From: Acidobacteriota bacterium
GTDB taxonomy: Bacteria > Acidobacteriota > UBA6911
Length of the DNA: 64,000 nt
Direction of reading: 5' to 3'
NCBI GenBank assembly: GCA_963664705.1
Contig: OY761556.1
Location: 5,760,001-5,824,000, forward strand
In this document: piece by piece, positions 9,867 to 49,865 of the stretch
Layout: each line of letters opens with the position of its first letter
How positions within the stretch are numbered: position 1 is the stretch's first letter
Translations under genes and position numbers: made by a program
The notes under the pieces: model-generated
Databases searched by the model: none
What the model was told of the DNA's origin: nothing
The model's input: the letters and a program-made list of their open reading frames with translations, nothing else

Positions 9867-11915
9867 ATGGCGACACCAGGATTCGGTGGAAAGATTTTAT
9901 TAGTCGATCTTACAACCAAAGAAATCAAAAGGCTGGAAACGGATCAATATGCAATGTACGGAGGTGGGCACGGCACCTCCACCGCCCTGTTCTGGGAATA
10001 CAGCGTAGTTCCGGGGAAATGGAACCTTGATGACGCATTCAATCCCCTGAATATGGTTTTTTTGATGACCGGCGCCGTATCGGGAACTGGAATTCCTTTT
10101 GCCTCCAGGACAAGCGTCTCGGGCATGTCTCCGCAGTGCTATCCAATCCAGTGGTGGTGTCACAGCAACTTTGGCGGCACATTTGCCATGATGCTTAAAT
10201 TAGCGGGCTGGGATGGCGTGGCAGTCATCGGAAGAGCAGAGTCTCCGGTATATATCAATATTGTTGATGACAAAGTCACGCTCGAAGACGCCAGAGATTT
10301 GTGGGGCATGACGACCTGGAAGTGCCAGGAGGAGATCTGGAAGAGATCCGGCGTGCGCTACGGAATGGACTGGCAGCTGTTGGATGGAGGCTATACGCTG
10401 CAACGGCCCGCAATTGTCACCATCGGAGCCGCCGGTGAGAACATGACGCGAGTTGCGTCGCTCGTACATGGCGGCGGGAGCGGCGCGGGGCAAGGCGGAT
10501 TTGGCGGTGTTTTTGGATCTAAGAACCTGAAAGCAGTGTCGGTCGTGGGCTCCGGCAGCATCAAAATAGCCAATCCCAAAGCGTTGGTCGATGCCAAGGA
10601 AAAATATCATAAGGGCGGTGGCGGTTTTAGCGTCAATCTTTTCGGCGGCGCGAATGATGTTGCCTCATGTTGCGCGGGATGCGGCATGGGTAGCAGAATG
10701 TGCCACAACCGAAACCGGTCTTTCAGCGCGGATTCCGACGATTGCGCGGAATCGACCTGGTTCACCATCTCCAAAGAACAGTCCAAGGGAGTAGAGCTCC
10801 CGAAAGATATCAATCAGAAAGGGACAGATATCATTCAGCAGTTCGGAATCAACGGAATGGAAACCTGTTTCCAGGGTCACACGTCATTTCCGACTTCTCA
10901 CAACAAGGACTTCCCTATCCAGCCGAGTATCCCTGCCTATTCAGCACTGGGCTGGTACATGATGAAGATGTATGAAATGAAAGTCATTGGTCCCGGCACC
11001 AAGTTCGATACCGCGCCTCTCCCAATGGATAAGTTCCCAAGTCAGGAATTCATGGAAATGTATGGACGCGCGATCGCAAACCGCGAAGGTTTTGGCAAGC
11101 TCCTGGGGGAAGGAACCGCCCGCCTTGTTGAAGCACTAGGTAGAAAGGAAGACTTTAGTACACTGGCCCGGCAAACGATGTGGGGATTTATGGATCACTG
11201 GTCCATGCCTAATGTCGAATGGGCTTACGGCAATCTGTTCGATTCCAGGGATATCAACAGCCATGATATTTCCTGGGGGCGGGGCGATGCGGAACAGGCG
11301 GTCAAAAGCTATGCGGCCGGAACTCTCAGGAACGAACCGCTTTGGTTCGATTACACCTGGCAGGGGGATCAGGCTTATAAAACCGGAGTCTATTCCAGAT
11401 ACAAAGCCGAATGGGTTGCCTGGCACATGCATTACTGGAATTATTACAAAGAATCGGTCGGCTTCTGCGACTGGGGTTATTGCAACCTTAGTGCCAACGG
11501 GCGCACTCCTACCGCCGAACCAACCTATCTCAATGCAATCACCGGAAGAAATCACTCTTTCAATGACGGTTTGGAAATCGGCCGGCGCGCCTGGAATGTA
11601 AAACGGGCGATTTTTGTAATGCAGGGCAGGCACAAGAAAATGGAGAATTTCACTCCATATTATTACATGCCCGGCGCCTCCTATTGCGGCTATTACACGG
11701 ATCAGCCCCTACTCAAAGGCGACAAATGGGAAATTCAAAGCTGCAGGGAACTATACTTCACAAGAGAAGGAGTCGATCAGTTCAAGACCCATTTCTATAA
11801 TGTCGAGGGCTGGGATCCGGATTCAGGCTATCCCAAACGCAAAACTCTCGAGGATCTCGACATCAAACAAGTCGCCGATTTCCTGCAGTCCAAAAACAAA
11901 CTCGGTAAGGCATAA
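9867..11915 (+). CDS. Aldehyde:ferredoxin oxidoreductase (AOR/WOR, YdhV-like), copy 1
   Basis: GFGGKILLVDLT, SNFGGTFAMMLKLAGWDG, GGVFGSKNLKAVSV, FYNVEGWDPDSGYPKRKTLEDL; AGGAGG RBS. Confidence 0.92.
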   Translation: MATPGFGGKILLVDLTTKEIKRLETDQYAMYGGGHGTSTALFWEYSVVPGKWNLDDAFNPLNMVFLMTGAVSGTGIPFASRTSVSGMSPQCYPIQWWCHSNFGGTFAMMLKLAGWDGVAVIGRAESPVYINIVDDKVTLEDARDLWGMTTWKCQEEIWKRSGVRYGMDWQLLDGGYTLQRPAIVTIGAAGENMTRVASLVHGGGSGAGQGGFGGVFGSKNLKAVSVVGSGSIKIANPKALVDAKEKYHKGGGGFSVNLFGGANDVASCCAGCGMGSRMCHNRNRSFSADSDDCAESTWFTISKEQSKGVELPKDINQKGTDIIQQFGINGMETCFQGHTSFPTSHNKDFPIQPSIPAYSALGWYMMKMYEMKVIGPGTKFDTAPLPMDKFPSQEFMEMYGRAIANREGFGKLLGEGTARLVEALGRKEDFSTLARQTMWGFMDHWSMPNVEWAYGNLFDSRDINSHDISWGRGDAEQAVKSYAAGTLRNEPLWFDYTWQGDQAYKTGVYSRYKAEWVAWHMHYWNYYKESVGFCDWGYCNLSANGRTPTAEPTYLNAITGRNHSFNDGLEIGRRAWNVKRAIFVMQGRHKKMENFTPYYYMPGASYCGYYTDQPLLKGDKWEIQSCRELYFTREGVDQFKTHFYNVEGWDPDSGYPKRKTLEDLDIKQVADFLQSKNKLGKA

Positions 11916-11963
11916 GTACTGCCTGGGGTTTAATCGGGAGCCCCTGCTCACTTGCGCCAAAAT

Positions 11964-11987
11964 AGCCCAGCCTATCAAGGCTGGGCT
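11964..11987. terminator. Perfect 10-bp hairpin between convergent genes
   Basis: AGCCCAGCCT-atca-AGGCTGGGCT; no strong U-tract. Confidence 0.5.
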
Positions 11988-12148
11988 CGCAGCTTCCAGG
12001 TAGACGTGCGCATTTCTATTGACCGATGGAGGCCTAAGCGCGGAGTCTGTGAGGATGAACAGGAGGTTCCTGGGCGCCATGCCCGTCAAAAAAGATACGC
12101 TACTATCCGGTTATGGAAAGAATTAGAGCCTGGCAAGCTTGGTGCGGG

Positions 12149-12724
12149 TTACTCCGCCCCGATTATCAAATCCTGCAGTTTCCGCTTAGGCACGTGATGT
12201 ATGGACTGCGCATCCCTGTAGTACTTGATGTCTCCGGAAGGGCCTATGTCCTCCAGCACCACTTTTTCCGCAGGCACGCCCAGAGCAATCACCAAAAGGA
12301 TGTCCATGGTTTCCGGGATTTTCAGTTCAGTGCGTAACCTGTCCCGCTGCACATTGCCTATGAAACATCCTCCCAGTCCCCTTTCGGCAGCACCCAGCAG
12401 AATACTCTGACCGGCTATGCCATGGTCGCAGAAGAAATTATCGGCGATGCTCTTGTCGCCCAGTATGATTATGTAGGCGGCAGGCCGCTCCCCCTCGCTG
12501 GGTCCGCCCCAATCTTTAAGGTATCCGGCCCAGCCCAGACAAGGGAAGATCGCACTGTTTTTCTCCGCCGCAGTAGACAGGAAGTATTTTAGTGACTGGC
12601 GGTTGGCCGCGGAGGCGGAAAGCCGGGCCAGGTTCACCAGATCTTTCAAGATTTCCAACGAAACCGGCACTTCTTGTTTGAACCTCCTGTAACTACGGTT
12701 TTTCGTAACAAGATCCAACAGCAT
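12149..12724 (-). CDS. Nitroreductase family protein
   Basis: NRSYRRF, ARLSASAANRQSLKY, DHGIAGQSILLGAAERGLGGCFIG, VPKRKL. Confidence 0.92.
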   Translation of the reverse strand: MLLDLVTKNRSYRRFKQEVPVSLEILKDLVNLARLSASAANRQSLKYFLSTAAEKNSAIFPCLGWAGYLKDWGGPSEGERPAAYIIILGDKSIADNFFCDHGIAGQSILLGAAERGLGGCFIGNVQRDRLRTELKIPETMDILLVIALGVPAEKVVLEDIGPSGDIKYYRDAQSIHHVPKRKLQDLIIGAE

Positions 12725-13111
12725 GTATTGCTCCTTAAGAAGGCTATATGTTTTTTAAGACCCTCCGCCGATTGTGAGTGGGAAGGGCTCATTTCAATAG
12801 GTATTTTGATACCAATGATGCTGGAACAACAGAACATAATCTCCAGAAGCGATCTGGAACATTTGGTCCCTCGGTTCCTCACGGACGTTCCAGGGTAAGA
12901 TAGCCTATTTTACAGCCTTCTGTTCGGCTCCCCGGCAACGGGTTCCATTATTCGGTGGTTGCGTGCGCCAAATAGCTGGCTCCTTCGCCGCGCATACAGT
13001 AAAATCCGCCATCGATGCCAGCCGGTTCGAACAGTCGGCAGATGCTAGTCTGCAGGAGACGACTGTTGTCATTGCCGGAGCTGTGTCGAAAGCTTGAGAT
13101 TGGAAAAAGTC

Positions 13112-14461
13112 ATGCTGCCTGGGAACCGGGAGTCCGCCGCGGCGAGCCGGGATGCAGGATCATCCCCGCTGTCGGGTAAAATGAAACATAACGCCTTCGA
13201 AGCCTTCCGATATCGCGATTACCGGTTGCTCTGGATAGGGAATCTTTGCCAGACCATTGCCATCTGGATTCAAATGACCACCATGAGTTGGCTTGCCTAT
13301 GATCTGACGGGCTCGGGCGGCACCCTCGGTTTGGTGAACGGGATTCGCATAATCCCCAATCTTTTCGTCACGCCGATCGCTGGGGTTACCGTAGACCGCT
13401 TCAATAGAAACAGAATCATTGCGGTCAGCCAATTCTCCCTATTTTTATTTACGTTTCTCATGGCCGTCGACATTTACCTCGGCCATCTTCATGTCTCCCA
13501 TTTGTTTGTCTTTGCTCTGATCTCCGGTATTGCCAATTCTTTCAACATGCCGGCACGGCAGACTTTCGTGTTCGACCTCGTCCCGGCGCATATCGTTCCG
13601 AACGCAATTGCTTTGGACAATATCGCGATGAGCTCGTCACGGACAATAGCTTCGCTTGGAGCAGGCGCGCTGATTGTTGCTTTTGGGCCCGGCAACAACT
13701 TCCTCATCCAGGCTTGTATGTATCTGGCAATTATGACTACTGTCTTATCGATAAGGACCAAGCGACGCCCGCAGGCCACGCATCGCCGTCACTTCTTTAA
13801 GGAAATGGCCGAGGGTTTCCGGTACGGGATCCGGAATCCGAATGCACGGTTGCTCATGCTCATGATGATTATCAACCCCATGCTTCTGGTCCCTCTGCAT
13901 ATGGCGCTGCTGCCCATTTTTGCAACCAAGGTGTTGGCCGGCAATGCCGGGACGCTGGGCTGGTTGATGGGTTCACTCGGAGCGGGAGGACTTATCGGCG
14001 GCATATTGACGGCATCGCTGGGCAGCGTCGACCGGCGTGGCCTCGTCCAAATAATTTCACTGCTCGTGCATAGCCTGGCTCATGCACTATTTTGCGTGGT
14101 GGCATATTGGACGCATCAGCTTTGGCTCGCGCTCCCCTTCCTCGTCCTGGCCGGCACCATGGAAAGCCTTCACCTCACAACGAATCAAACCGTACTTCAG
14201 CTCCTCGCCCCCGATCACCTCCGTGGACGGCTGACGAGCGTCTTGCAATTAGTTCTGTTGATCAATCCGATTGGAATTTTCGCTGCCGGGGCACTTGCGG
14301 ATCATTTCGGGGCACTCGCCGTGGGCATAGCGTTCAGCATCTCCGCTCTTTTCATGACAATAGGCATTTTCCTCTTCTCCTCGCGGATGCGGGATCTTCG
14401 CCTCAGCGAACTCAGCGAACTCGGCCGGCAAGGCCTCGACCTAGCTCAGCCAGGACGATGA
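13112..14461 (+). CDS. MFS transporter (EntS/DHA3-like)
   Basis: About 12 TM; FRYRDYRLLW, motif A GVTVDRFNRNR, PDHLRGR; start could be 13181. Confidence 0.9.
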   Translation: MLPGNRESAAASRDAGSSPLSGKMKHNAFEAFRYRDYRLLWIGNLCQTIAIWIQMTTMSWLAYDLTGSGGTLGLVNGIRIIPNLFVTPIAGVTVDRFNRNRIIAVSQFSLFLFTFLMAVDIYLGHLHVSHLFVFALISGIANSFNMPARQTFVFDLVPAHIVPNAIALDNIAMSSSRTIASLGAGALIVAFGPGNNFLIQACMYLAIMTTVLSIRTKRRPQATHRRHFFKEMAEGFRYGIRNPNARLLMLMMIINPMLLVPLHMALLPIFATKVLAGNAGTLGWLMGSLGAGGLIGGILTASLGSVDRRGLVQIISLLVHSLAHALFCVVAYWTHQLWLALPFLVLAGTMESLHLTTNQTVLQLLAPDHLRGRLTSVLQLVLLINPIGIFAAGALADHFGALAVGIAFSISALFMTIGIFLFSSRMRDLRLSELSELGRQGLDLAQPGR

Positions 14462-14711
14462 AAAGAGCTGCTTTGCCCCGATTCACGAAAAGTGTTTCCA
14501 GAAAAAAGTTAAATGTTCTTAGTGATTCTGGCCCCTGATCCGAGATGAATCTGAGTATGCACAGCATTGCTTGCGAGCTGTCGATTTTCAGGCTGAGGGA
14601 AGCGGTAATCTTCGCAAGCATGGTGGAGAAATTCATGCCCTCATATGGCAAAATTTCTATCTTAAATTACTGACAAAATGATGAAGAGGAGCCCTTCGCA
14701 AAAGGAGGCAT

Positions 14712-16151
14712 ATGGAATACCGTAAGAATCGCCGCACAAAGAATCCGTTTTATTCGCTTCTTTTTCTGCTTTTGCTGATCATCCTTCTGAATCCGATGAA
14801 ATCGCAAGGCCAAACCGGCAGGAATCCGGATGTTCTCCATCAACTCAGTAGTTCCCTTGAAACTGTTACACGAAAAATTTCTCCGGCAGTTGTTCAGGTA
14901 AATGTAACACGCTATGCGGTGGTTGAAAATGAAGGGCGGAGTGCCTCGGCAGTATTAGGTCGGCAGCAGGTTACCGGATCGGGAGTTGTCATAGATTCGG
15001 AAGGGTACATCATTACGAATGCGCATGTGGTAGCGAATGCACAGAGAATCCAAGTCCGGTTGCCTGCGAAGGATGATAGCGGATCTCCTGCCTCAGTAAT
15101 GAAATCCAGAGCCCAAGCCATAAATGCGACTATTATCGGCATGGATAAACAAATCGACATTGCTCTTCTCAAAGCCGAAGCTACCGGCCTCTCGACGCTA
15201 TCATTTGCAAAATATGATCAGATCCGGCAAGGCCAGCTGGTTCTTGCGCTGGGCAGTCCTCAAGGACTGGAAAACACAATTACAATGGGAGTCATCAGTT
15301 CTGTCGCCCGGCAACCCCTCGGCAGCAATCCCCTTGTCTACATCCAGACGGATGCCCCGATCAATCCCGGCAACAGTGGCGGACCGCTGGTCGATGTCGA
15401 CGGCAACGTTGTGGGATTGAACACCTTCATTTTCAGCCAGAGTGGCGGGAGTGAAGGCATCGGATTCGCAATCCCGAGTTCAATCGTCGATCATGCGTAT
15501 CAACAAATCAGAAAATTTGGTCACGTCAATCGGAAGGTAGCGGGAGTTTCCGTCCAGCCGATTACTCCCACGTTGGCCATGGCCCTGAACTTACAGCAGG
15601 ACCATGGAATCATGGTCGCTGATGTCCTGCCCGATGGGCCTGCCGAGACTGCGGGACTGAAAATCCAGGACATTATCGTATCGGCGGATGACAAGCCCAT
15701 GGAGTCGATGGCAGAGTTTGAGACATTTCTCCTGCTGTATGATTCGCCAAAAATGAAAATGAAGGTCCTTCGGGAGGGCAAACAGGTTTTATTCGAGATC
15801 CCCGTCATTGAAAGGCGGAACGAAGAAGATCAGTTGAAAGATCTTGTTAATCAGAAGAACCTGGTTCCGCAACTCGGGATAGTGGGCGTAACGATAGATG
15901 AGAAAATCGCCAAGGTTAAGGAAGATCTTCGCATTGAAAGCGGCGTCCTTATTGCAGCTTTGGCTGAGTCTGCCGAGGCGCACGAAATTGAACTTGAGGC
16001 CGGCGATGTTATTCACTCGATCAATGGTTCTCCAATCCAAAATGTTACCGGGTTGCGTGATGCACTGAACCGTATCAAAACAGGCTCCCCAGTTGCCTTA
16101 CAGATAGAAAGAGACGGACAGCTTCAGTTCCTGGATTTCGAGATGTGGTAA
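14712..16151 (+). CDS. HtrA/DegP-type serine protease with two PDZ domains
   Basis: Signal/TM segment; ITNAHVV, DIALLK, QTDAPINPGNSGGPL; two PDZ-like segments. Confidence 0.93.
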   Translation: MEYRKNRRTKNPFYSLLFLLLLIILLNPMKSQGQTGRNPDVLHQLSSSLETVTRKISPAVVQVNVTRYAVVENEGRSASAVLGRQQVTGSGVVIDSEGYIITNAHVVANAQRIQVRLPAKDDSGSPASVMKSRAQAINATIIGMDKQIDIALLKAEATGLSTLSFAKYDQIRQGQLVLALGSPQGLENTITMGVISSVARQPLGSNPLVYIQTDAPINPGNSGGPLVDVDGNVVGLNTFIFSQSGGSEGIGFAIPSSIVDHAYQQIRKFGHVNRKVAGVSVQPITPTLAMALNLQQDHGIMVADVLPDGPAETAGLKIQDIIVSADDKPMESMAEFETFLLLYDSPKMKMKVLREGKQVLFEIPVIERRNEEDQLKDLVNQKNLVPQLGIVGVTIDEKIAKVKEDLRIESGVLIAALAESAEAHEIELEAGDVIHSINGSPIQNVTGLRDALNRIKTGSPVALQIERDGQLQFLDFEMW

Positions 16152-16174
16152 GGGATGCAGACCCAGACTGCGTC

Positions 16175-16500
16175 TTCATGACTCGTAAAACCAGGTACCA
16201 TTGTCGGTTGGTACCGAGCTGGTTTTCGCTTGTTCTGGCGATTGCGGTCTCCGAAAAAAAATCCGGGTAGGTCAAAAATTACGACGGAGATTCGAAATCC
16301 GATCGGAAAATGGCCGAGGAAGGCGCGAGTTGAGGTGCTCCAGGAATTCACGCGGAGCTTCTCAAGTGGGGCTTTGATCTACCGGAGCGTAGTCCCGCTA
16401 TCTTCGCCGCACATCTCCTTCCGGCCAGGCTCGCAGACTTTGTGCCACTTTTCTTCGCAACTATCGAGAGGTTATAGCGGCCATGGAGTTTCTCAACAGT
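16175..16500 (+). mobile_element. Degenerate rve/integrase-core transposase remnant
   Basis: Across frameshifts and a stop: KPGTIVGWYRAGFRLFWRLRS...GRSKITTEIR..., *GAPGIHAELLKWGFDLPERS, ATFLRNYREVIAAMEF; same family as 3181-3300. Confidence 0.75.
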
Positions 16501-16618
16501 GGGATCCCGCCTGGCCTGCATGTCAACAATTCTACTTTGCAATTCCTCACATGTTCACATCAATTACGACTCAAATTTCACTGCGCGGAATATTGGCGAC
16601 GGACAAAGCTATCAAATA

Positions 16619-18640
16619 TCATATTCCCAGCTTGCCTCTGGCAGCCATGGTATCTGCCATCTTTTTCATGCCGAAATCTTCCAAGGTCTTTCTGGTCGGC
16701 CAACCGTGGACAGTATCCCAGCCCTCCAATTTGTAGAAGTGGGTCTTAAATTCCTCTACGCCACCCTTGTCCAGATATATATCCGGCAGGTTGTCCCAAT
16801 GCCATTTGCCATCTTCGTACACCGGGACTCCACCAAAAGCGGCCATCCCAGCGGCTCCGGGCCTGTACATGTACGGGAAGAACACTTCTTGCTCCCGGCT
16901 TAGGCCCGCCATAGTTCGAATTGCCCGCTCCAGGGTCCAGATCTTCCTGCCAGTTTCCATGGTATCCGCAAAAGAAATTTTGCTGCCGGTAACAGCCCGA
17001 TAATAGCGCATCTCCATGTCGGGAGTGACCGTGTTCAGTCGCGGCAGGAAAAATTCACAGAAAGCCATGGATTCGTTCCAGAAACTTGCATAATGCCTGG
17101 TCCAAGCCACCTCCTTGGCTTTATGCTCGGAATAGATGCCCGTTTTTCTGGCTTCGTCTCCTTTCCAGGCGTAGTTGAACATGAAGATATCATTATAAGG
17201 AATGACCCTTGCGGAAAGCCGTTCCAAAACCTTCTCAATGGGAGTGCCATCCCGGGAAGTCCCGACGGCCGAGCTGAACCCATGCCAACTGGGATCTCCT
17301 GCTCCGAGCAGGTAGTTATAAGCCCATTCAACGTACGGCATGGTCCAATGCCCTGTGGCTCCCCAGGCCGGGAACCGCAAGGCGCCGGACTCCATGTCCT
17401 GTTCCAGCCGCCCCCATTTCTTGGCCGCTTCGCAGACGCCTTCGGCTATGGCGTCGCCGATTCCTTCTCGCCGGGCTATGGCATCAAGGAACGCTTCGCG
17501 GAAGACCAATTCTCCCCATTGGTCCATGGGCAGCGGAGCCGATTCGATCTGCTTTCCCGGACCCAGCACGCCCTGCTCATAGAGGTAACGCAGATACCAG
17601 CCGATTCCTGTTTCCATCGGCACTTTTTTGTGGAAGAACTCCGGCGCATTGGGAACGTCCGACACGAACGCTCCTAAAAAATGAGCCGCCCAGGAACTGG
17701 CTCCGTATTTCATCAATGCTCCTGCAGCACGGTCTGCAGCCTCCGTTCCACGATCGCCCAGCCACAACTGACTGGTGCACATGGTTTCGCCGCCATATAA
17801 GGTGTTGCGTCGACGGTCGGCACGGAGGCAGGAATTACAGGAACCATCCCCGGGTACTGCGGCACCAAATTGTCCTGTCGTTATCGGAGTCTGCATATCG
17901 GCCAATCTGGCGTCCAGGACGCCCTTGGGATCCGCCATCTTCACATTGCCGGTCCCCGTCACGCTGATGGCCTTCAAATTCTTCGCCCCAAAGATCGCGC
18001 CGTAGCCGCTAACGAGGCTGCTGCAGCCGCTGCCGTGAATCAAGGCTGCCAAACTGGACTTGGTCTCTCCAATTGGGCCGATGCAAACGATCTGAGGTCT
18101 GGCCGTTGTATAGGCGTTCCCAATCTGCTGCCATTCATCACCGAAGCGAGTCCTTCCGGCAACCATGGATTCAATCCGGTTCTGAGTTGTCCAGGTATCC
18201 AAGCCCCAGAGCTCCTTCGCTTCCTCGATTTTGACTTGGTCGTTGATGATATTGATCCATACCGGCCTTTCCGCCCGGCCTTCCACTACCACGCCATCCC
18301 ACCCCGCCAACTTCAACATGGTGGCAAAACGGCCGCCAAAATTGCCGCGGTGGAATTCCCGAGTTGGAAAGGTTTCCGGACAGATGCCGCAGACACTGGT
18401 TCTGCCGGCTCCGGGAACGCCCGTAGCCGCCAATCGACCCGCCATGATAGGAAGGACATGGCGCGGATCGTAGGGATCCTTCAAATCCCATTCGCCCGGG
18501 GCGACCGCGAGATCCCAGAAGATGGCTGCGCCCATACCATAGCCGCCGCCGTATTCCTCGTATTTTGCGGTGTCGATTGTGCTGATTTCTTTTGTTGTCA
18601 GATTGACTCGTGCAATTTTACCTGTGAATCCATTGGCCAT
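16619..18640 (-). CDS. Aldehyde:ferredoxin oxidoreductase (AOR/WOR, YdhV-like), copy 2
   Basis: MANGFTGKIARVNLTT, GNFGGRFATMLKLAGWDG, GAIFGAKNLKAISV, FYKLEGWD..GWPTRKTLE. Confidence 0.92.
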   Translation of the reverse strand: MANGFTGKIARVNLTTKEISTIDTAKYEEYGGGYGMGAAIFWDLAVAPGEWDLKDPYDPRHVLPIMAGRLAATGVPGAGRTSVCGICPETFPTREFHRGNFGGRFATMLKLAGWDGVVVEGRAERPVWINIINDQVKIEEAKELWGLDTWTTQNRIESMVAGRTRFGDEWQQIGNAYTTARPQIVCIGPIGETKSSLAALIHGSGCSSLVSGYGAIFGAKNLKAISVTGTGNVKMADPKGVLDARLADMQTPITTGQFGAAVPGDGSCNSCLRADRRRNTLYGGETMCTSQLWLGDRGTEAADRAAGALMKYGASSWAAHFLGAFVSDVPNAPEFFHKKVPMETGIGWYLRYLYEQGVLGPGKQIESAPLPMDQWGELVFREAFLDAIARREGIGDAIAEGVCEAAKKWGRLEQDMESGALRFPAWGATGHWTMPYVEWAYNYLLGAGDPSWHGFSSAVGTSRDGTPIEKVLERLSARVIPYNDIFMFNYAWKGDEARKTGIYSEHKAKEVAWTRHYASFWNESMAFCEFFLPRLNTVTPDMEMRYYRAVTGSKISFADTMETGRKIWTLERAIRTMAGLSREQEVFFPYMYRPGAAGMAAFGGVPVYEDGKWHWDNLPDIYLDKGGVEEFKTHFYKLEGWDTVHGWPTRKTLEDFGMKKMADTMAARGKLGI

Positions 18641-18655: not shown

Positions 18656-19405
18656 TTAGGACTTTGACGCCGGTGGTTCTTTGGCGGTTGGGGTTCCCGG
18701 CTTACGAGACGGCGTCTTCGGCATCGGAGGAGCCAGATTGACGTCGTACCCGGATACATCCTCCTGCGGAGGAGCTTCATGGACAATTTTGAGCGCCTTG
18801 GCTGGACAGCACGTAACACATGCGGGTTCCCCATCGGGGCCCCCCTTTTTGCTCCAGAAAGGCGCGTCGATGCATAGGTCGCACTTGGAAGATTTGTTCT
18901 TGTAGGGATTCCAGACCGTCCGATGAGGCCGTTGAGGGCAGAACTGGATGCACCGCTTGCAGCCGATGCACTTGGCCTGATCGATGACCCGGACATTACC
19001 GTGTTCGGTATCAACATGAGCGGCGCCGGTCGGACAATTCTGGACGCAGAGCGGTGATATGCATTGACGGCAGGCTGCCATAACGACGTCGAGTGGGTAC
19101 TTGGTGAACGATGGAGCATCCCGGACAATCTGAATTCGGGACAGGGCAGGATTCGCTTCTCCTTGATGCGTCATGGAACATGCAAACATACAGCTTTGGC
19201 AACCCCAGCATAGACGACTGTCATAAACGATGTAGCCGGTGGATGCAGGATACGTTGCTTTCGTATCAGCAGGGAATGCCGTCGTTGCTGAAACTCCCGG
19301 AACGCCAACTGCAAGCGCTCCTCCAGCCAGAGCTGCGCCACTACCGACTAGAAACTCACGCCTGTGCACTCTCTTTTTGCTGTCGGCCTTTTCTGATTCA
19401 GCCAT
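18656..19405 (-). CDS. Tat-signal 4Fe-4S dicluster protein (YdhY-like)
   Basis: HRREFL twin-arginine signal; four Cys clusters; paralog of 9079-9852. Confidence 0.9.
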   Translation of the reverse strand: MAESEKADSKKRVHRREFLVGSGAALAGGALAVGVPGVSATTAFPADTKATYPASTGYIVYDSRLCWGCQSCMFACSMTHQGEANPALSRIQIVRDAPSFTKYPLDVVMAACRQCISPLCVQNCPTGAAHVDTEHGNVRVIDQAKCIGCKRCIQFCPQRPHRTVWNPYKNKSSKCDLCIDAPFWSKKGGPDGEPACVTCCPAKALKIVHEAPPQEDVSGYDVNLAPPMPKTPSRKPGTPTAKEPPASKS

Positions 19406-41610: not shown

Positions 41611-41622
41611 AAGGCCTCAGGT

Positions 41623-41637: not shown

Positions 41638-41765
41638 TACAATACATATGAAATATCTATTCCACAAATGGAAAAAATTCATGTACATTCGCATTGTGGG
41701 CAATTCCAGTTTCAGCCAGGAAGAATGGAATACTGCCCGTCAATCAGCAAATCGGGAGTTATCCA

Positions 41766-42596
41766 ATGGCATCTTCAGAATTACCTCCGCTCAGTCCAGA
41801 AGAACAGCGAAGATCCTACGCCAAATACTATAAAAGGCCGGTTTCGCCGGATCCCGCGCATCTGGCTTTGATGGACATGCCCTGCGACCCCTCAAAAGCC
41901 GTATATCCGGAGCAGATGAATGACCTTCTCAATCCCGGCGATCTGTCGGTGGAGATTGGGTGGTGCAATCTGCCCAACGGCGCGGGCTTTATCGCCAACA
42001 GGAACTTCTACAAAAATGTGACGGCAGAGATGATCGACTGGTGGTTCGCCTGGCATCCGCTTGACGGCTTGCGGTACCGCATTTGGTATCCGCCGCAACA
42101 CGCGGGAATTGATCTGAAGCCCGAAGGCCGGGCGCGAATTCTGGATCCAGGCATCCCCGTTTCTGAGAAGAATTGGGGGGTAACCCATTTTGTTACCGAA
42201 GACTGCGATTGTGGAATGGAAAACATCGAAATCACATTTCTGTCGCCTCGAGATTTCGGATTTGATATGACGCGGTGGCAGGAACCGTACGTTTCCACTT
42301 TCGCAGGCGGCTTCGGCTGGTCCACACCGGCTGGGCATACGGAGCATCCCATAAAGGCACCTTCTTTAATGTGTCATATTTTTCGAAATATCCCGGGCGG
42401 TCTCGAACACCGAACGCGCTTCTGGATCGGTTATCGGATGTCCAGCGGCAAGCCTGAACTGGTCCTGCCTCCGGGCATCGCAGTTCCGGCAATAGCGGTT
42501 CAGGGGTTGGCAAGGCACAATGTACGGGAATTCAGTAATCTTGGCGTGCTGCTGCCGGAGATCCACGCGGAATACGGCGGGCAGCTGATCGGGTAA
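41766..42596 (+). CDS. PhlG/phloretin hydrolase family C-C hydrolase
   Basis: VTAEMIDWWFAWH...RYRIWYPPQH, THFVTED, EHRTRFWIG, ARHNVREFSNL; the H/E/H/E Zn-ligand pattern is present. Confidence 0.88.
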   Translation: MASSELPPLSPEEQRRSYAKYYKRPVSPDPAHLALMDMPCDPSKAVYPEQMNDLLNPGDLSVEIGWCNLPNGAGFIANRNFYKNVTAEMIDWWFAWHPLDGLRYRIWYPPQHAGIDLKPEGRARILDPGIPVSEKNWGVTHFVTEDCDCGMENIEITFLSPRDFGFDMTRWQEPYVSTFAGGFGWSTPAGHTEHPIKAPSLMCHIFRNIPGGLEHRTRFWIGYRMSSGKPELVLPPGIAVPAIAVQGLARHNVREFSNLGVLLPEIHAEYGGQLIG

Positions 42597-42630
42597 GCAT
42601 AAATACGTTCGAATCAGTTTTGGAGGGGGC

Positions 42631-42852
42631 ATGAGTGCCACTATTGAGATCAATCTGGATGAATGCACTGGCTGCAAAAATTGTGTTGAGGCTTGCTTTG
42701 TAGATGTGATGCGATGGGACGATGACGAAGAAAAGCCGGTTGTCGCATATGAACCGGATTGCGTCTGGTGTTTTACTTGCGAAATCAACTGCCCCGCTCA
42801 ATGCATCAACGTCGTACCTCAAATGCCGGGACAACTCGTAAATCCGTACTGA
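42631..42852 (+). CDS. 2x[4Fe-4S] ferredoxin (AprB-like small subunit)
   Basis: CTGCKNCVEAC and CVWCFTCEINCP. Confidence 0.9.
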   Translation: MSATIEINLDECTGCKNCVEACFVDVMRWDDDEEKPVVAYEPDCVWCFTCEINCPAQCINVVPQMPGQLVNPY

Positions 42853-42881
42853 GCGTCGTCCGCAAACAAAGGGAGTCATAC

Positions 42882-45128
42882 ATGGTAGAGAAAGCCAAGA
42901 ACTCAACAGCATACGATACAGACGTTCTTATCATCGGCGGCGGCTTCGGAGGCCTTTCGGCAGCGATCCGGATTAAAGAACTGTCCCCGGAATCCAGTGT
43001 GCTGCTCGTCGATAAACAGACAATTGGCTGGGGAGGAAAAGCGAACAAAGGGGCCGGCGTTTTATGGGTCCTTGCCCCCGGAGATGACATCGATGCCTTT
43101 GCGGATTTCCACGTAAAGAACATAGGGATGTACCTGAACGACCAGGATCTGCTGTATGCCATGGCCCGGGAGTCATACGGAGCGGCGCAGAAGCTCGCGG
43201 ATTGGGGCGTTAAGGTGATGAAGACTCCGAATGGAGATCTTGATGTCAGCCGGCTTCCTTTCGGATGGTCCCTGGCGGCCGCCGACTTGGATATGATGCA
43301 GCCGCTTAGGGCAAAGGCGGTGAAACTCGGAGTCAAGCTGTTGGACAAGACTCATGTGGTCGATTTGCTGAAACAGGAAGGACGCGTAACCGGCGCAGTC
43401 GGCTTCAATCTCCTGGATGGGGGATTCGCGGTCTTCAACGCAAAGGCCACGATATTGGCCAACGGAGATTGCGATTTCGGCGTTATGCGAATGTGGGCTA
43501 ATGCCACCGGAGACGGCATTGCAGCCGCCTTTAATGCCGGAGCGGAGATGCGGAATGCCGAATTCGGCAACTTTTACGATGTCACCAACAAAGGCACAGG
43601 CATTCCGATCGTTTTCGGTTTTAACTCTCTCTGGAACGCGCAGGGGGAGAATATAAGCGCCAAATACATCCATGGACCGCAGCCGGATATCCCGATTTCC
43701 ATCATTCTCGGTATGGAGAAAGAGGTCATGGAGGGAAGAGGACCTATCTATTTTGACCCGGCTGAGTTTGCGAAAAGCATGGGTGGCGGCGGCGGGGGAA
43801 TATTTCAATGGGACCGGCCTCATACCAAAGCGCTTTTTGCCTGTGATGCAAAGAAGGCACAGCAGTATGGCCCGCCACCGGCAGAGAAAATAGAAGTTTC
43901 TCTTGGATTCACAGGCGAGTTTTCCGCAATCAGAGTAGACAGCGAAATGCAAACAACCCTCCCGGGTCTGTGGGCAATCGGAGATACCAGCTATGCGGGA
44001 TCTGCATGGGCCGGCGCTGCAGAGGCGCCGCCGGGCAGATTGAGAGGCTCCGGCCTGATGAACGCTTTGATATCCGCTCTGATGTCTGCCCGGTCCGTGG
44101 TTGAGCACGCAAAAGAGGCCTCCCCTACCATTGCGGATGACAACCAGGTCGCCGCTCTAAGGGAGAAAATTTTTGCGCCTCTGAACCGTGACGGCGGATA
44201 CGCGGCTTCGGAAGCCATACGAAGCATTCAGGAAGTAGTTGTACCGGTGAAATACAGCATGCGCAGGAACAAGGAAAGACTGGAAGAAGCCTTGTCCAAG
44301 GTGGCAGCGGTCAAGGAGAGGCTGCCCGAATTATCCGCCAAGGATCCGCACGGTCTCGTCCGCTGTCATGAGGCTTCCTGCATTGCACTGTGTGCCGAAA
44401 TCGGCTTTAAGTCAGCGCTGGCGCGCACTGAAAGCAGGGGTTGGCATTACAGAGAGGATTATCCCCAGCAGGACGACAAAAACTGGCTCAAGTGGGTCAT
44501 TGTAAAAAAAGTGCAGGACAGCATGGTCGTTACCACCGAGCCCATTCCCAGCGAGCTCTATAAACTAAAGCCAGGACAGGTTACCGCTGTGCCTGACGCG
44601 GTTGTCGAACACGATGAGCTTATCGGGGTGACCCCCGAAATGATCGATTGGTGGTGGGTCAATATGGAAAAGGGATACCCATTGTGGGAACCAACCGATC
44701 ACAAATCCTTTGTTTGGGAAGTGCCGCCGCCGGTTGGAGGATATCTGGGAGCAATCCAGATCGCAGAGGAAAAAATGGGGCCAATGCCGCCGATGAAAAT
44801 TCGCATCCGGTGGGACGACCCCGCCACCTGCTCCATCCCTTGTATCTACGAGCATGCGATCGTTGCAGCTGGGGTTAGTCCCGATGGGAAGGTGGGCGCT
44901 ATGATTCTCCATGAGTGGGAAAAGAGTCCCCGGGGAACCAGGATGCGCTCCACGATGCGTTTCCCGGGTCCCGTTCCACCCGGCTTCGCCGAGATCTGGA
45001 AAGCTCACGACAGGGCGGAAGTATCGACCTTCCCCGGATTCCTGCCCGATCTCTACAGACTATGGCAGTCTGTGAAGGATCCGGCAATCAACAGGCAATG
45101 CTCATTGAAGGTGAAGAAAACTTCGTAG
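42882..45128 (+). CDS. AprA/SdhA-like FAD oxidoreductase fused to a C-terminal PhlG-like domain
   Basis: DVLIIGGGFGG, AKATILANG, TGDG, PGLWAIGD, ARTESRGWHYREDYP; then GVTPEMIDWWW...LWEPTDH...IAEE...AHDRAE from about 44600. Confidence 0.88.
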   Translation: MVEKAKNSTAYDTDVLIIGGGFGGLSAAIRIKELSPESSVLLVDKQTIGWGGKANKGAGVLWVLAPGDDIDAFADFHVKNIGMYLNDQDLLYAMARESYGAAQKLADWGVKVMKTPNGDLDVSRLPFGWSLAAADLDMMQPLRAKAVKLGVKLLDKTHVVDLLKQEGRVTGAVGFNLLDGGFAVFNAKATILANGDCDFGVMRMWANATGDGIAAAFNAGAEMRNAEFGNFYDVTNKGTGIPIVFGFNSLWNAQGENISAKYIHGPQPDIPISIILGMEKEVMEGRGPIYFDPAEFAKSMGGGGGGIFQWDRPHTKALFACDAKKAQQYGPPPAEKIEVSLGFTGEFSAIRVDSEMQTTLPGLWAIGDTSYAGSAWAGAAEAPPGRLRGSGLMNALISALMSARSVVEHAKEASPTIADDNQVAALREKIFAPLNRDGGYAASEAIRSIQEVVVPVKYSMRRNKERLEEALSKVAAVKERLPELSAKDPHGLVRCHEASCIALCAEIGFKSALARTESRGWHYREDYPQQDDKNWLKWVIVKKVQDSMVVTTEPIPSELYKLKPGQVTAVPDAVVEHDELIGVTPEMIDWWWVNMEKGYPLWEPTDHKSFVWEVPPPVGGYLGAIQIAEEKMGPMPPMKIRIRWDDPATCSIPCIYEHAIVAAGVSPDGKVGAMILHEWEKSPRGTRMRSTMRFPGPVPPGFAEIWKAHDRAEVSTFPGFLPDLYRLWQSVKDPAINRQCSLKVKKTS

Positions 45129-45242
45129 GTACTGAAAGCCTCAAGTGGCGATCGTTCCATCGCCACTTGGGGCCCATTTGATCCCGCCATTCCGTAATCC
45201 TATTATTGGAGTTCCCGCACGACGACAGACTTCGATGGAATA

Positions 45243-47396
45243 CTATTTATAGTAATTGAAAAATACCACCAGCTTGCCGCTTTCTTTTCCGGGGATAATT
45301 TTCAGTTCTATCTGTCCGCTGACTGTTGTGCCAACACCCAATTTTTCCAATGTTGCAGTTACTGTTGGTTTATCTCCTGAGCCGATTAGTTCGGTATTTG
45401 TCAACTGGCCTTTCCACAATACCGGGCCAAAGGAATGCCTCAGTACATATTCGCCAGGAATAATGTTTTCAAATACATACTCATTGGTTCCTTCTTTAAC
45501 CATTTTTCGGTCAACAGGACCTTGTCCAAACATTCCTTCCATGGGCGCAGCGCCACCTTTCGCAAGTTCAATCTCCGCGCCACGTCCGAGAGTCCTTTGT
45601 GTTCTTTCCCTGTAGTAATCGGTTCCATTGTCAAATGCTTCAACTTCGAAATAGTATTCGGGATTTTTATTCAAACTGTGAATGGTTAATGTGTTGGCAT
45701 CGTAAACCATGTAGCTGTTGTAAAGCTTTTTGGGCTCGATGCCGTAGCGAACAACATAGCCAGCGGCTCCTTTTACCGGTTCCCACAAGAGGGTTGCGTC
45801 GCGACGATCTTCCTGGCTGCGAACTGCTTTCACATTTATTGATTTCGTAAATTTGGCAACTTCAGGATTACCGAAGATCCGCAAATCTTTCACTGCGAAT
45901 TTCCCGCTCTCCGGAGTAAATACGTTTGTTAATTTGACATACCTTGCTTTTACAGGTTCTGCAAGTTCGGCGTAATCATGTTGGATCGCTTCCTTGTTGT
46001 TGCTTTTGTCAATTACGATTGTCCAGGTCTTGTTGTCGTTCGAAACCTGGAGCGTATAAGACTGTTGCTGCGCGTTTTTGTCGGTATTGACATTCATGCC
46101 CATTCCAAAGCCGCGCCCCATGCCGGTTGTTTTGGCATCTTTCTGGTCGAAATTGATCTGCAATGCATAAATTTTGCATTCTTTGCCCAGGTCAACAGTC
46201 ATGTATTCACCGGGCTTACCTGTTTGAGCGCTCCAGAAAGTCATGAAGTTTTCATCTACGGCCTTCTGCGGTTCAAAGCCTTCCAGGGTAGAAGACGTCT
46301 CCACATATTTTTTGTTGGATAAAAGCATCCAGCCCGAAAAGTTGTTGTCAGCCGGGCTTTTTGCGATTCCGGGATAAAATTGTGGGTAGTCGCCGAAAGC
46401 TGTGTTCGAGTGCATTACCCCCTGGGCATCTACCGCCGTTGGGTACAGGGCCAAGTCGCTGCCGCCTCTTCCCCCAAAGTAAGACGGGATCATGCAGATG
46501 GTCCACAGGTTTCCGTTCTTGTCATGAAAAGTGCTGCCATGTCCACCGCCTGGAGCAAACCCGGTAGTTTTGAATGTAAGCGGGTTGTGTTCAGAATATT
46601 TGAACGGGCCCATTGGGCTGTCCGATATATAAACGCCATGAGAGTAGGATAAAAATTCGAGACCGATGGCTGCATATTGCAGGTAATATTTTCTGTTGTA
46701 TTTTACCATCCACGGACCTTCAATCCATGGGATTTCTTCGGGGAAGTACGGGCGGTGGTTGAAGAACGGGAAGATAACGTCTTCCTTTCTTCTTCTCTCA
46801 AATCCGTGGTTCTCAGGATCGCCAAAGAAGCAAACGACTGGTTTGCCTTTTTCCTTGAATCCCTTTTGGGGATCCAGTTCAACAACCTGGATCGGAAGAA
46901 GCTGGGACCATCCGTAGTACATATAAACGCGGCCATCATCGTCGATAAAAATGTCGGCATCACCGTACCGGTCACTGTCGAGTGTGGCGGCCTTGGTCCA
47001 AACACCGCTCTTGGGATCGGTCGATGAAAACAGATCCTTTGAATTCATTGCGCAGGCATAGAGGATCTTCCCGTCGGTAGCAACCCCGGGAACCCCGCCC
47101 GGAAAAGTGGGAGCATCGATATAGGTCCAATCCCTCATGTTTGGAGAGCTCCAATATCCACGGCTTCCGGTGATGAAAAGATAGTAGTCATTATTAAAAA
47201 TAAGCACGATCGGCTCGCCGGCTCGCCTGGCGCCTGGAATGGTCAGCGGGTTGCAGTAAGTCATCGGCTTATCCTTTATCAGGACAGCGGCGGCTTTCGA
47301 GACGGCATTTTCATCTGATTTTTCGGGGCCAGCTGCGCTGGCGATACTGGCAATAAAAACAATTCCGACAAGCAGTATTTCATTTATTGTTTTCAT
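45243..47396 (-). CDS. Secreted GH43 glycoside hydrolase with F5/8C (CBM32-like) and FN3 domains
   Basis: TYCNP, DADIFIDDDGRVYMYYG, PWIEGPWM, GHGSTF, AVDE..TFWSA...ARYVKL, GYVVRYGI. Confidence 0.87.
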   Translation of the reverse strand: MKTINEILLVGIVFIASIASAAGPEKSDENAVSKAAAVLIKDKPMTYCNPLTIPGARRAGEPIVLIFNNDYYLFITGSRGYWSSPNMRDWTYIDAPTFPGGVPGVATDGKILYACAMNSKDLFSSTDPKSGVWTKAATLDSDRYGDADIFIDDDGRVYMYYGWSQLLPIQVVELDPQKGFKEKGKPVVCFFGDPENHGFERRRKEDVIFPFFNHRPYFPEEIPWIEGPWMVKYNRKYYLQYAAIGLEFLSYSHGVYISDSPMGPFKYSEHNPLTFKTTGFAPGGGHGSTFHDKNGNLWTICMIPSYFGGRGGSDLALYPTAVDAQGVMHSNTAFGDYPQFYPGIAKSPADNNFSGWMLLSNKKYVETSSTLEGFEPQKAVDENFMTFWSAQTGKPGEYMTVDLGKECKIYALQINFDQKDAKTTGMGRGFGMGMNVNTDKNAQQQSYTLQVSNDNKTWTIVIDKSNNKEAIQHDYAELAEPVKARYVKLTNVFTPESGKFAVKDLRIFGNPEVAKFTKSINVKAVRSQEDRRDATLLWEPVKGAAGYVVRYGIEPKKLYNSYMVYDANTLTIHSLNKNPEYYFEVEAFDNGTDYYRERTQRTLGRGAEIELAKGGAAPMEGMFGQGPVDRKMVKEGTNEYVFENIIPGEYVLRHSFGPVLWKGQLTNTELIGSGDKPTVTATLEKLGVGTTVSGQIELKIIPGKESGKLVVFFNYYK

Positions 47397-47846
47397 TTGC
47401 GTGCATAGGAAGCATCAGCAGGCTTTTCAAATCAGTTCCGCGCCAAATGGCTTCCCGGCTCCCCTTTCAAATTTTGACATGGGATTAGGCAATGCAACTG
47501 GAGTAATTTTCGGCGCTATTTTACTGAGAAAGGATGTTTTTGCACACCTTTTCTCCTTCTGCTGGATAGAAGGGGGTTGTATGCAGCTTGAAAGCCGGAG
47601 GCGCTCATTTGCGCTGCAGGAACGGGCATCACAAACGGAAACGGGCCCGGAGATTATTTCGACCGCGCACCACACGGGATGAAATACGCTACAGTTGTGG
47701 CAATGAGTCTACTTGTGTTGGCGAAAACGGCTTGACGAGCGGTTTGGATTCTTGGATATTGCGTTGATATTGAGCACCCAATGGAAAAGATCGTCGTTTC
47801 GGAGACACTTGAAAGCATAGTTGCCTAGAAGAGAGGGGATAATAGC

Positions 47847-49865
47847 TTGGCAGACGGATATGCAGGAAAAATATTGAGAATCAACCTGACGTCCAAGTCA
47901 ATCTCTACGATCGATACCTCCAAGTATGAAGAGTTCGGCGGGGGGTATGGGATGGGGACCGCCATCTTCTGGGATCTGGCGGTCGCGCCGGGCGAATGGG
48001 ACCTGAAGGATCCATACGATCCACGGAACGTAATTCCCCTTATGGTTGGCCCTTTTGCTGCTACTGGAGTTCCTGGCGCAGGCAGAACGAGCATTTGTGG
48101 CCTGTCTCCCGAGACATTTCCAACCTCCGAATTCTGGCGGGGTAATTTAGGCGGTCAATTCGGGACCATGACAAAACTTGCAGGTTGGGATGGAATAGTA
48201 ATTGAAGGCAAGGCCGATAAGCCGGCTTGGATCAATATCATCAACGACCAAGTCAGGATCGAGGATGCCAAGGAACTCTGGGGCCTGGATACTTGGGAGA
48301 CACAGAACCGAATCACTTCAATGGTGTGCGGAAGAGTTCGATTTGGTGAAGAATGGCAACAGATCGGGGATGCCTATACCACTGCACGACCGCAGATCGT
48401 CTGCATCGGGCCAATAGGCGAAACCAAGTCAAGACTCGCCGCTCTGATTTCCGGCAGTGGAATCAGCGTACGAGTGGGTGGCTATGGGGCGGTTTTCGGG
48501 GCCAAGAACTTAAAGGCTGTGAGCGTAATCGGGACCGGCGGGGTGCAGGTCTCAAATCCGGCGCATGTACTGGAAACCAGACTCCAGCATCTGCAATCAG
48601 GGAGTGTTTTCCCGCCCCGCCCCGGGTCGGCATCCTGCTCACCTTGCTTAAGCGGAGACCGGCGTCGGAGCAACTATTACGGCGGTGAGACCATGTGCGC
48701 CTGTCAGGGATGGCTTGGTGGCGACAAAAGCCAGACGGATCAAGACAAGGCTTCCGAAGCATTGATAAAATATGGCCTCAGCAGCTGGTCTGCCCATTGG
48801 CACCGGGACTCCTTTGAGCTTTCCGAGGCGCCGGAATTTTTTCATGGGAAAGTGCCATCGGACTTTGGCCTGGGCTCATATCTCCAGTATCTGTATGAGC
48901 AGGGAGTGTTGGGTCCGGGGAAGCAGATCGATTCGTATCCGCTGCCCATGGATCAGAGAGGAGAGTTCAGTTTCCGCCTTGCCTTTTTGGAGGCAGTTGC
49001 CCACCGTACCGGGATTGGCGATGCCCTGGCCGAAGGTTGCTGCCGGGCCGCTCAGAAATGGGGACGGCTGGAAACGGACAAGGACAACGGAGCCCTGCGC
49101 CTTCCAGCCTGGGGAGCAACAAGCCACTGGACGATGCCCTATGTTGAATGGGCTTATGCCTACATGCTCGGAGCAGGGGATCCTGCCTGGCATACATTCA
49201 TGCTTCGCACCAGCGCTCCCCGCGACGGCACATCCCTGGAAATATCTCTGGCGAATCTGGCAAAGAAGACTATCCCCTATACCGACGACATTTTCATGTT
49301 CAACTATGCGTGGAAGGGAGAGGAGGCTTGGAAAACCGGCATCTATTCGCCGCATAAAGCCAAGCAGGTGGCGTGGGGTCGGCACTATTCTTCATTTTGG
49401 AACGAATCCATGGCTTTTTGCGAGATGTTCCATCACGCGCTGGGCAGCAATAGTCCGGAATTGGAAATGGACTACTACAGAGCTGTCACCGGGAAAAAGG
49501 ACTCCTTTGCCGATACGATGCGAATCGGTCAAAAAATCTGGACCTTGGAGCGCGCCATCCGTGTCATGCACGGAAGAAGTCGGCAAACGGAAGACTTATT
49601 TCCATATATGTATAAGCCCGGAGCGTCAGGCAAGACAAAGTACGGCGGAGTGCCGATCTATGAAAACGGCAAATGGCATTCCGATTTGGCGCCGGACATG
49701 TACCTGGACCGAAAGGGCGTGGACGACTTCAAAACCCACTTCTATACGCTCGAAGGATGGGATAAGGAACATGGCTGGCCTACTCGCGGGACACTGGAAG
49801 AGTTGGGATTGGGAAGAATAGTGAAGGTACTCGGTGACCATGGGAAACTGGGAATCGGCCAATAA
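47847..49865 (+). CDS. Aldehyde:ferredoxin oxidoreductase (AOR/WOR, YdhV-like), copy 3
   Basis: TTG start with GAGGGG RBS; close paralog of copy 2; no adjacent Fe-S gene. Confidence 0.92.
   Translation: MADGYAGKILRINLTSKSISTIDTSKYEEFGGGYGMGTAIFWDLAVAPGEWDLKDPYDPRNVIPLMVGPFAATGVPGAGRTSICGLSPETFPTSEFWRGNLGGQFGTMTKLAGWDGIVIEGKADKPAWINIINDQVRIEDAKELWGLDTWETQNRITSMVCGRVRFGEEWQQIGDAYTTARPQIVCIGPIGETKSRLAALISGSGISVRVGGYGAVFGAKNLKAVSVIGTGGVQVSNPAHVLETRLQHLQSGSVFPPRPGSASCSPCLSGDRRRSNYYGGETMCACQGWLGGDKSQTDQDKASEALIKYGLSSWSAHWHRDSFELSEAPEFFHGKVPSDFGLGSYLQYLYEQGVLGPGKQIDSYPLPMDQRGEFSFRLAFLEAVAHRTGIGDALAEGCCRAAQKWGRLETDKDNGALRLPAWGATSHWTMPYVEWAYAYMLGAGDPAWHTFMLRTSAPRDGTSLEISLANLAKKTIPYTDDIFMFNYAWKGEEAWKTGIYSPHKAKQVAWGRHYSSFWNESMAFCEMFHHALGSNSPELEMDYYRAVTGKKDSFADTMRIGQKIWTLERAIRVMHGRSRQTEDLFPYMYKPGASGKTKYGGVPIYENGKWHSDLAPDMYLDRKGVDDFKTHFYTLEGWDKEHGWPTRGTLEELGLGRIVKVLGDHGKLGIGQ

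Follow-up and report, generated by a model that had tools for sequence, protein, structure and literature searches.

What kind of enzyme is encoded by the three AOR-family genes found on contig OY761556.1 of an Acidobacteriota bacterium (lineage UBA6911, assembly GCA_963664705.1)? The window, a 64,000-nucleotide stretch comprising positions 5,760,001 to 5,824,000 of the forward strand of this contig, contains three large-subunit (WorL) genes, namely, copy 1 (9867-11915, plus strand, 682 aa), copy 2 (16619-18640, minus strand, 673 aa) and copy 3 (47847-49865, plus strand, 672 aa, with a TTG start). We infer the metal, the ligands, the export and the substrate of their clade from sequence, and favour, with a probability of about 0.55, the reading that these are periplasmic two-subunit oxidoreductases with a cysteine-ligated tungsten (or molybdenum) bis-pterin centre, acting on paralog-specific substrates that are probably not simple aldehydes.

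All three open reading frames (ORFs) are intact, and each product exceeds both Pfam cut-offs (AFOR_N and AFOR_C), which assigns it to the AOR/WOR family, as the preliminary description of this DNA had proposed. Copies 2 and 3 are 68% identical, and copy 1 shares 38-40% with either. The genes are dispersed, forming no cluster, and represent three of the 15 loci of one clade in the genome. The motifs reported in that description were located in all copies, including the distal FC(D/E): C269-x2-C272-x6-C279, DDC293AES and FC534D in copy 1; C268NSC271LRAD275, ETMC288TSQ and FC528E in copy 2; and C264SPC267LSGD271, ETMC284ACQ and FC525E in copy 3. They are not due to chance, since the downstream Cys, together with an Asp (116) or Cys (4) at the third position, is present in all 120 listed close homologs of copy 2, a set that includes three proteins of the same genome and one 496-aa fragment. 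From the alignment, the cluster would be held by C269, C272, C279 and C534 in copy 1, by C268, C271, D275 and C528 in copy 2, and by C264, C267, D271 and C525 in copy 3, with C293, C288 and C284, respectively, as the predicted ligands of tungsten or molybdenum (W/Mo).

Single-sequence searches against solved structures aligned the N-terminal domain only, and profiles were therefore used instead. Profile A1 comprises 131 rows (the three copies, 28 of the 120 close homologs and 100 representatives) and was aligned with the solved structures end to end, residue numbers being counted on the printed alignments; the copies were placed on it by a local run. Profile A4 consists of 44 clade rows only. 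Both profiles put the conserved Cys in the column of BamB Cys322 and of Glu311 of P. furiosus AOR, the first Glu of the EYE motif, and Cys336 of E. coli YdhV shares the column of the DDC/ETMC Cys. The codon of Cys293 in copy 1 (10743-10745, plus strand) is aligned with BamB Cys322, that of Cys288 in copy 2 (17777-17779, minus strand) with both BamB Cys322 and YdhV Cys336, and the codon of the predicted metal ligand Cys284 in copy 3 lies at 48696-48698 (plus strand). Of the 100 full-length representatives (50% identity), 98 have a cysteine in this column; the sample was obtained from 150 listed rows by dropping 50 shorter ones and is biased towards the query. According to the accessible text of PMC12096430, Cys322 and Cys336 are metal ligands, and such a Cys is absent from every other AOR/WOR member. 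The DDC/ETMC cysteine of the three copies very probably binds the metal as a protein ligand, in line with the Cys-ligated W/Mo centre suggested earlier. The accompanying statement that Cys replaces the EYE motif is correct at Glu311 and too broad for the motif as a whole; only the first Glu is replaced, and copy 1 keeps an equivalent of Glu313. The possibility that the ETMC/DDC Cys is simply the third cluster ligand was considered and rejected: Asp275 and Asp271 fill that column in copies 2 and 3, and natural five-cysteine variants exist, namely, the 4 of the 120 close homologs that have Cys at the third position and keep both ETMC and the distal FC.

Asp275 of copy 2 (codon 17816-17818, minus strand) and Asp271 of copy 3 (48657-48659, plus strand) stand in the column of AOR Cys295, the third cluster ligand. 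The proximal [4Fe-4S] cluster is provided with four ligand positions: copy 1 fills them with Cys throughout, copies 2 and 3 with three Cys plus an Asp. The residue preceding the third position varies among the 120 close homologs (G49, A45, S21, C4, N1), and in the FastTree tree the forms with Cys at the third position nest within the Asp subclade. The restriction to Asp and Cys, together with this nesting, means that the site accepts only ligand-type residues, which suggests that it stayed a ligand site in the Asp subclade. A cysteine immediately before the Asp (CxxCxxCD) was rejected as a ligand, being present in 4 of the 120 only and always alongside the Asp. In a separate group of Cys-type representatives (P0174, P0197, P0211, P0216, P0222, P0226, P0232 and P0233) the first two cluster cysteines are separated by a three-residue spacer.

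The preliminary description had left the choice between an Asp-ligated and a 3Fe cluster in copies 2 and 3. The Asp is indeed in the ligand column, and the distinction between [4Fe-4S] and [3Fe-4S] lies beyond sequence; we regard an Asp-ligated 4Fe cluster as probable in both copies. Asp-ligated clusters turn readily into 3Fe clusters, as in P. furiosus ferredoxin, which counts in favour of a [3Fe-4S] or labile 4Fe/3Fe cluster with the Asp not on iron. WOR4, in which a cluster Cys is replaced by Gly, has such a [3Fe-4S] cluster, as stated in the available part of PMC12096430. However, the residue at that place in WOR4 is Gly and not Asp, the close homologs of copy 2 have nothing other than Asp or Cys there, with the Cys forms nested among the Asp forms, and a [4Fe-4S] cluster with three Cys and one Asp has been solved in ASOR (same source), all of which makes a 3Fe cluster unlikely here.

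The AlphaFold2 model of copy 2, on which alone the fold comparison is based, has the full AOR/WOR fold (pLDDT 93.5, pTM 0.95) and agrees over its whole length with the solved WOR structures (Z 30.0-36.5, root-mean-square deviation (rmsd) 2.6-3.1, 538-574 residues aligned). Of the pterin- and Mg-site residues, Arg81, Asn101, KxLK and ExxxxC are retained. Asp462 is present in all 44 clade rows, and each of His444, His466, Cys293 and Cys534 in all but one (copy 1 numbering). Of the second shell of AOR, the segment with Thr243 is gone, Glu313 is matched in copy 1 only, His/Trp occupies the position of Tyr427, and His448 is kept. The Thr243 segment and the proton-channel segment of BamB (Glu251, His255, Glu257, His260) belong to an insertion absent from the clade profile A4. 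The position of the catalytic Glu313 is variable: copy 1 has Glu295 there, copy 2 has Ser290 and copy 3 has Cys286; the 44 clade rows include 17 with Glu, 11 with Asp, 4 with Ser and 4 with Ala, and the Asp subclade (the 120 close homologs) includes 60 with Asp and 56 with Cys. Between KxLK and the first cluster Cys lie 44-50 aa in the three copies, as against 92 in two AORs, 103 for the genome's BamB-like protein and 112-113 for YdhV and CsWOR41. A short pre-cluster loop was nevertheless rejected as a hallmark of the clade, with 44-92 aa inside it versus 53-113 outside, some other Cys-type representatives being as short as 53.

These features bear on the claim that the chemistry may not be simple aldehyde oxidation. 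The missing Thr243 segment agrees with it, as does the replacement of Glu313 by Ser in copy 2 and by Cys in copy 3; copy 1, which keeps Glu and His, could still oxidise aldehydes. The enzymes could be Cys-ligated and still act as periplasmic aldehyde oxidoreductases, the paralogs being tuned to different aliphatic or aromatic aldehydes. Besides the Glu of copy 1 and its His at the His448 position, this is consistent with Glu or Asp at the Glu313 position in 28 of the 44 clade rows. One Asp-type paralog is located just upstream of a gene for p-hydroxycinnamoyl-CoA hydratase/lyase, an enzyme that releases aromatic aldehydes. This arrangement occurs at 1 of 6 loci only, and the hydratase/lyase was rejected as a clue to the substrate. 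Most characterised WORs oxidise aldehydes (PMC13328260, available part); yet such activity is shown for no Cys-type WOR in the accessible texts of PMC12096430, PMC13328260 and PMC9103625, and the Cys-type relative CsWOR41L was inactive on all 46 aldehydes tried (PMC13328260). We treat aldehyde oxidation as a minority possibility and lean slightly towards a main substrate other than a simple aldehyde.

Phylogenetic analysis with FastTree (133 rows, 537 columns; row L049 is frameshifted and was read with X) placed the copies within a clade of 49 rows (support 1.0) that excludes YdhV, CsWOR41 and the BamB-like protein. In IQ-TREE, run on 33 of the FastTree rows as a quick search without bootstrap, the clade obtained a value of 99, and a branch with a value of 98 united it with ten other Cys-type representatives, excluding YdhV and BamB. 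Both trees omit G. metallireducens BamB, ASOR, WOR4, FOR and GAPOR, and own-genome and plasmid-borne proteins stand in for BamB and AOR. The three proteins thus do not fall within a characterised AOR clade with standard ligands, an outcome that the preliminary description had kept in view; in both trees they form an uncharacterised AOR/WOR clade of their own.

This clade could be a far-diverged part of the YdhV group (clade 41, Class V) that shares its respiratory role, which would be compatible with the reading favoured here and would lower its novelty. The metal Cys, the twin-arginine small subunit and the His/Asp/His motifs are common to both, and the approximately unbiased (AU) test did not reject the clade and YdhV as one group (p 0.314). 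The YdhV model NF007354, however, scores the three copies at 181, 197 and 209 bits against a cut-off of 868; while their identity to YdhV and a BamB-like protein is 26-31% overall, it is 26-28% to the YdhV group; the separating branch has 0.97 and 98 in the two best trees; and a co-encoded third subunit is missing, whereas all Class V enzymes have one according to the accessible portion of PMC13328260. We consider membership of the YdhV group possible and, on this evidence, doubtful.

A second possible relationship, with BamB-like low-potential ring reductases acting on aromatic substrates, would be supported by the equivalent of Cys322 and by Foldseek, in which the copy 2 model gave its highest TM-score with BamB (0.72-0.73 versus 0.64-0.68 for the others). 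Desulfatiglandales, in genomes of which the clade is likewise expanded, degrade aromatic compounds. However, the Z value for BamB, 34.5, is below that for AOR (36.2 in the end-to-end comparison, 35.7-36.5 over the AOR structures), the Glu251-His260 segment lies within the insertion that the clade profile lacks, and no bamC-I genes were found nearby in the window annotation or at the genome's own loci. A BamB-like protein with C299 and C322 is encoded separately in the genome, ahead of genes for a ferredoxin and Hdr-like proteins, and a CoA-ester substrate is hard to square with export. Ring reduction by the clade is accordingly very improbable. The separate BamB-like gene (L004, G000:C1:3824658-3828248) encodes 653 aa and is preceded by enoyl-CoA hydratase-like genes; this locus suggests class II benzoyl-CoA reduction in an acidobacterium. 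A shortened AOR-like protein, some 430 aa long and with just two cysteines in the cluster motif, is encoded at another locus (L005, G000:C1:4411802-4415401), beside genes for ferredoxins and membrane hydrogenase-like proteins.

Copies 1 and 2 are each preceded, at a distance of 14-15 bases, by a gene for a polyferredoxin small subunit, WorS. The WorS of copy 1 (9073-9852, plus strand, with a likely ATG at 9079) contains 16 cluster-type cysteines, sufficient for a predicted four [4Fe-4S] clusters, an SRRHF leader of the twin-arginine type and a Pro/Gly-rich tail. The WorS of copy 2 (18656-19405, minus strand) likewise has 16 cluster-type cysteines and an HRREFL leader, again of the twin-arginine type, with no membrane anchor past it. 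Copy 3 has no adjoining WorS. The RR-x-F motif is invariant in 19 of 19 aligned WorS proteins (two from the window and 17 from 22 related loci); the hydrophobic stretch that comes after it is the only one. On this motif and hydropathy, WorS was assigned to the twin-arginine translocation (Tat) pathway, and export of copies 1 and 2 by this route is quite probable. We infer binding of WorL to WorS from the gene order and by analogy with BamBC, ASOR and YdhVY. In the accessible text of PMC13328260, Tat-bearing WorS proteins occur in clade 41 only, and always with a further subunit; no conserved further subunit was found in the window, at the 12 other own loci or at the 22 related loci. A partner WorS is present at 8 of the 15 clade loci of the genome. 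At four of the loci inspected (L044, L046, L047 and G000:C1:179003-181793) the genes are arranged in tandem as WorS-WorL-WorL, the second large subunit following the pair, and large subunits without a partner may share one WorS. In contigs from RNA libraries of near relatives, 27-30 of 30 bins of copy 2 and its WorS were found in three studies, an uncontrolled result that is not counted as evidence of expression.

The twin-arginine partners had been missed in the preliminary description, which saw the three paralogs, and so had the expansion of the clade throughout the genus. This genome has 25 AFOR_N matches, 15 of them in the clade. With copy 2 as the query (E 1e-60), where matches are not to be read as copy numbers, all 30 genomes of the genus, which includes Acidobacteria bacterium UBA6911, gave 5-19 matches each, and 21 genomes from ten other genera of the family gave none (0 of 21). 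Of 251 genomes sampled across the phylum, with four candidates scored per genome, two matched, both of the genus. AFOR_N counts are 8-25 in the genus versus 0-8 elsewhere in the family. Four genomes of Desulfobacterota, two of them Desulfatiglandales, have 8-13 matches, the best being 68-73% identical to copy 2, and this distribution suggests a transfer of the clade between phyla, in either direction. In the plasmid collection no full-length relative was found (none of 48 records covers 80%). One clade paralog of the genome (L019) has an in-frame TAG (G000:C1:6584256-6584258) where its relatives have Ala; since no pyrrolysyl-tRNA synthetase of the genome scored above the cut-off, the gene is probably defective, or else the sequence is in error here.

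The metal appears more likely to be tungsten than molybdenum. The genome encodes two TatC, three NrfD, four MoeA, one ModA and two TupA-like proteins, the genes for the last of these being situated roughly 3-7 kb away from one WorSL paralog. TupA-like genes are present in 24 of the 30 genomes of the genus versus 2 of the 21 other genomes of the family, kin that are not independent of one another.

A possible course of events is as follows. WorL would take up its cofactor and a single [4Fe-4S] cluster on folding (with three Cys and an Asp as the cluster ligands in copies 2 and 3) and bind the four-cluster WorS, whose leader would carry the pair through the Tat pore; copy 3, without a neighbouring WorS, may borrow one or remain cytoplasmic. 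With Cys on the metal, the substrate would react at the single remaining water or sulfido ligand, assisted by the conserved His, Asp and His (444, 462 and 466 in copy 1), and the variation between Glu, Asp, Cys and Ser at the Glu313 position may tune specificity between paralogs. Electrons would pass from tungsten to the proximal cluster, to WorS and on to a quinone-linked membrane module encoded elsewhere, and oxidation of the substrate feeding respiration is the favoured direction.

Several observations weigh against this reading. The Cys-metal and Asp-Fe contacts are predicted from alignment. Copy 1 has Glu295, His444/Trp445 and His466 at second-shell positions of AOR, an arrangement compatible with aldehyde oxidation. 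The first DxxGxD pterin motif is not conserved, although BamB, too, does without its first Asp. For copy 1, the hidden Markov model alignment puts Ser276, not Cys279, in the third cluster column without a gap. MAFFT puts Cys279 there by way of a 3-residue insertion, and Cys279 is favoured because the length of the spacer varies among relatives (3, 5 or 6 residues) and the interval to the metal Cys stays at 14 residues; its assignment is less certain than that of the Asp in copies 2 and 3. Seven of the 15 own loci are without an adjacent WorS. The scan of neighbours, covering 87 genes (77 of the 99 at own loci, 10 of the 109 at related loci), revealed no conserved neighbour that would point to a substrate or a membrane partner. 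The two TupA-like matches, of 230 and 157 bits, are below the curated cut-off of 400, and ModA is also in the genome. Finally, the CsWOR41 assay used the partly purified L subunit alone, as described in the accessible part of PMC13328260.

Upstream of copy 1 in the window (5386-8881) are genes for a MarR regulator and an 801-aa glycyl radical enzyme; the latter is under all NCBIfam cut-offs (the best being PFL2-3, with 548 versus 678), no glycyl radical activase was found among the annotated ORFs of the window, and no glycyl radical enzyme was seen upstream of WorL in the ORF lists of the 22 related loci, inspected by eye. The region 41694-45128 contains a PhlG-like (2,4-diacetylphloroglucinol hydrolase, DAPG hydrolase) gene, then a gene for an SdhA/AprA-like flavoprotein with a C-terminal PhlG-like domain, with a LysR regulator adjoining. 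At 661-1320 there is a short, probably truncated fragment of a TOTE-type archaeo-eukaryotic primase domain.

Precedents exist for the features singly, namely, the Cys ligand in BamB and YdhV and the three Cys plus Asp in ASOR (PMC12096430, accessible text), while no description was found of these features in combination, of an exported WorLS pair standing alone or of the amplification across the genus. Neither the clade nor its expansion is described in the titles and abstracts found; subscription papers were mostly beyond reach, and the 92-clade WOR classification may already number the clade. In the available text of a genomics preprint on UBA6911 (10.1101/2021.04.09.439258), 'tungst' and 'molybd' do not occur. 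As far as the accessible portions go, a 2025 review (PMC12096430) restricts the metal Cys to BamB and YdhV, and a 2026 classification (PMC13328260) restricts the twin-arginine WorS to clade 41 with extra subunits; the present clade agrees with neither of them, provided that it is not a remote branch of clade 41. Among Cys-type WORs, one only has a known reaction, the reduction of benzoyl-CoA, and YdhV has resisted assay. The natural Asp/Cys and Glu/Asp/Cys/Ser variants in a two-subunit family offer direct tests of a Cys-ligated tungsten centre. Within the family, the expansion sets apart a single genus of uncultured Acidobacteria, whose niche in anoxic soils, wetlands and digesters it may define. 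Tentatively, the clade might represent a third, so far undescribed functional class of Cys-ligated tungstoenzymes, Tat-exported and two-subunit, open at the active site and able to switch between Asp and Cys as cluster ligand. Such enzymes would serve, at 5-19 matches per genome, as a periplasmic substrate-scavenging library in one genus of Acidobacteriota, shared with Desulfatiglandales, and catalyse a reaction new to tungsten biochemistry.

Compared with known systems, the clade has the fold of AOR sensu stricto of P. furiosus (PDB 1AOR; Z 36.2, rmsd 2.6, 544 residues aligned) and has Arg76, Asn93, KxLK, the distal cluster Cys494 and His448 in common with it. In contrast to that enzyme, Glu311 is exchanged for Cys in all three copies, the Thr243 segment is gone, Arg186 is replaced, and Glu313 is kept in copy 1 only. 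BamB of G. metallireducens (PDB 4Z3W) likewise has a Cys at the position of Cys322, the same fold and no EYE; it differs in possessing the Glu251-His260 segment and BamC-I, whereas the partner here has an export leader, and it is on a separate branch in both trees, where it is represented by a stand-in. ASOR (WOR5) of P. furiosus (PDB 6X6U and 6X1O) is a heterodimer of the same L plus S type, and its [4Fe-4S] cluster is likewise held by three Cys and one Asp (PMC12096430, in the part available), a likeness in composition only. Unlike the present proteins, with their Cys, ASOR has no protein ligand on tungsten and keeps Glu328; Tyr199 replaces a conserved Arg in ASOR, and Gln or Val is found at that position here.

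The closest resemblance is to YdhV/YdhY of E. coli and CsWOR41 of Cetobacterium (clade 41, Class V), which also have the metal-site Cys (Cys336), a twin-arginine small subunit with four clusters encoded upstream, and His/Asp/His by the active site. They have no known substrate either, as stated for YdhV in the accessible text of PMC9103625. Apart from the low identity and the scores far under the NCBIfam cut-off, the clade differs from them in lacking a co-encoded membrane or third subunit, in a pre-cluster loop of 44-50 instead of 112-113 aa, in the Asp predicted as third cluster ligand in copies 2 and 3, and in its occurrence at up to 15 loci per genome.

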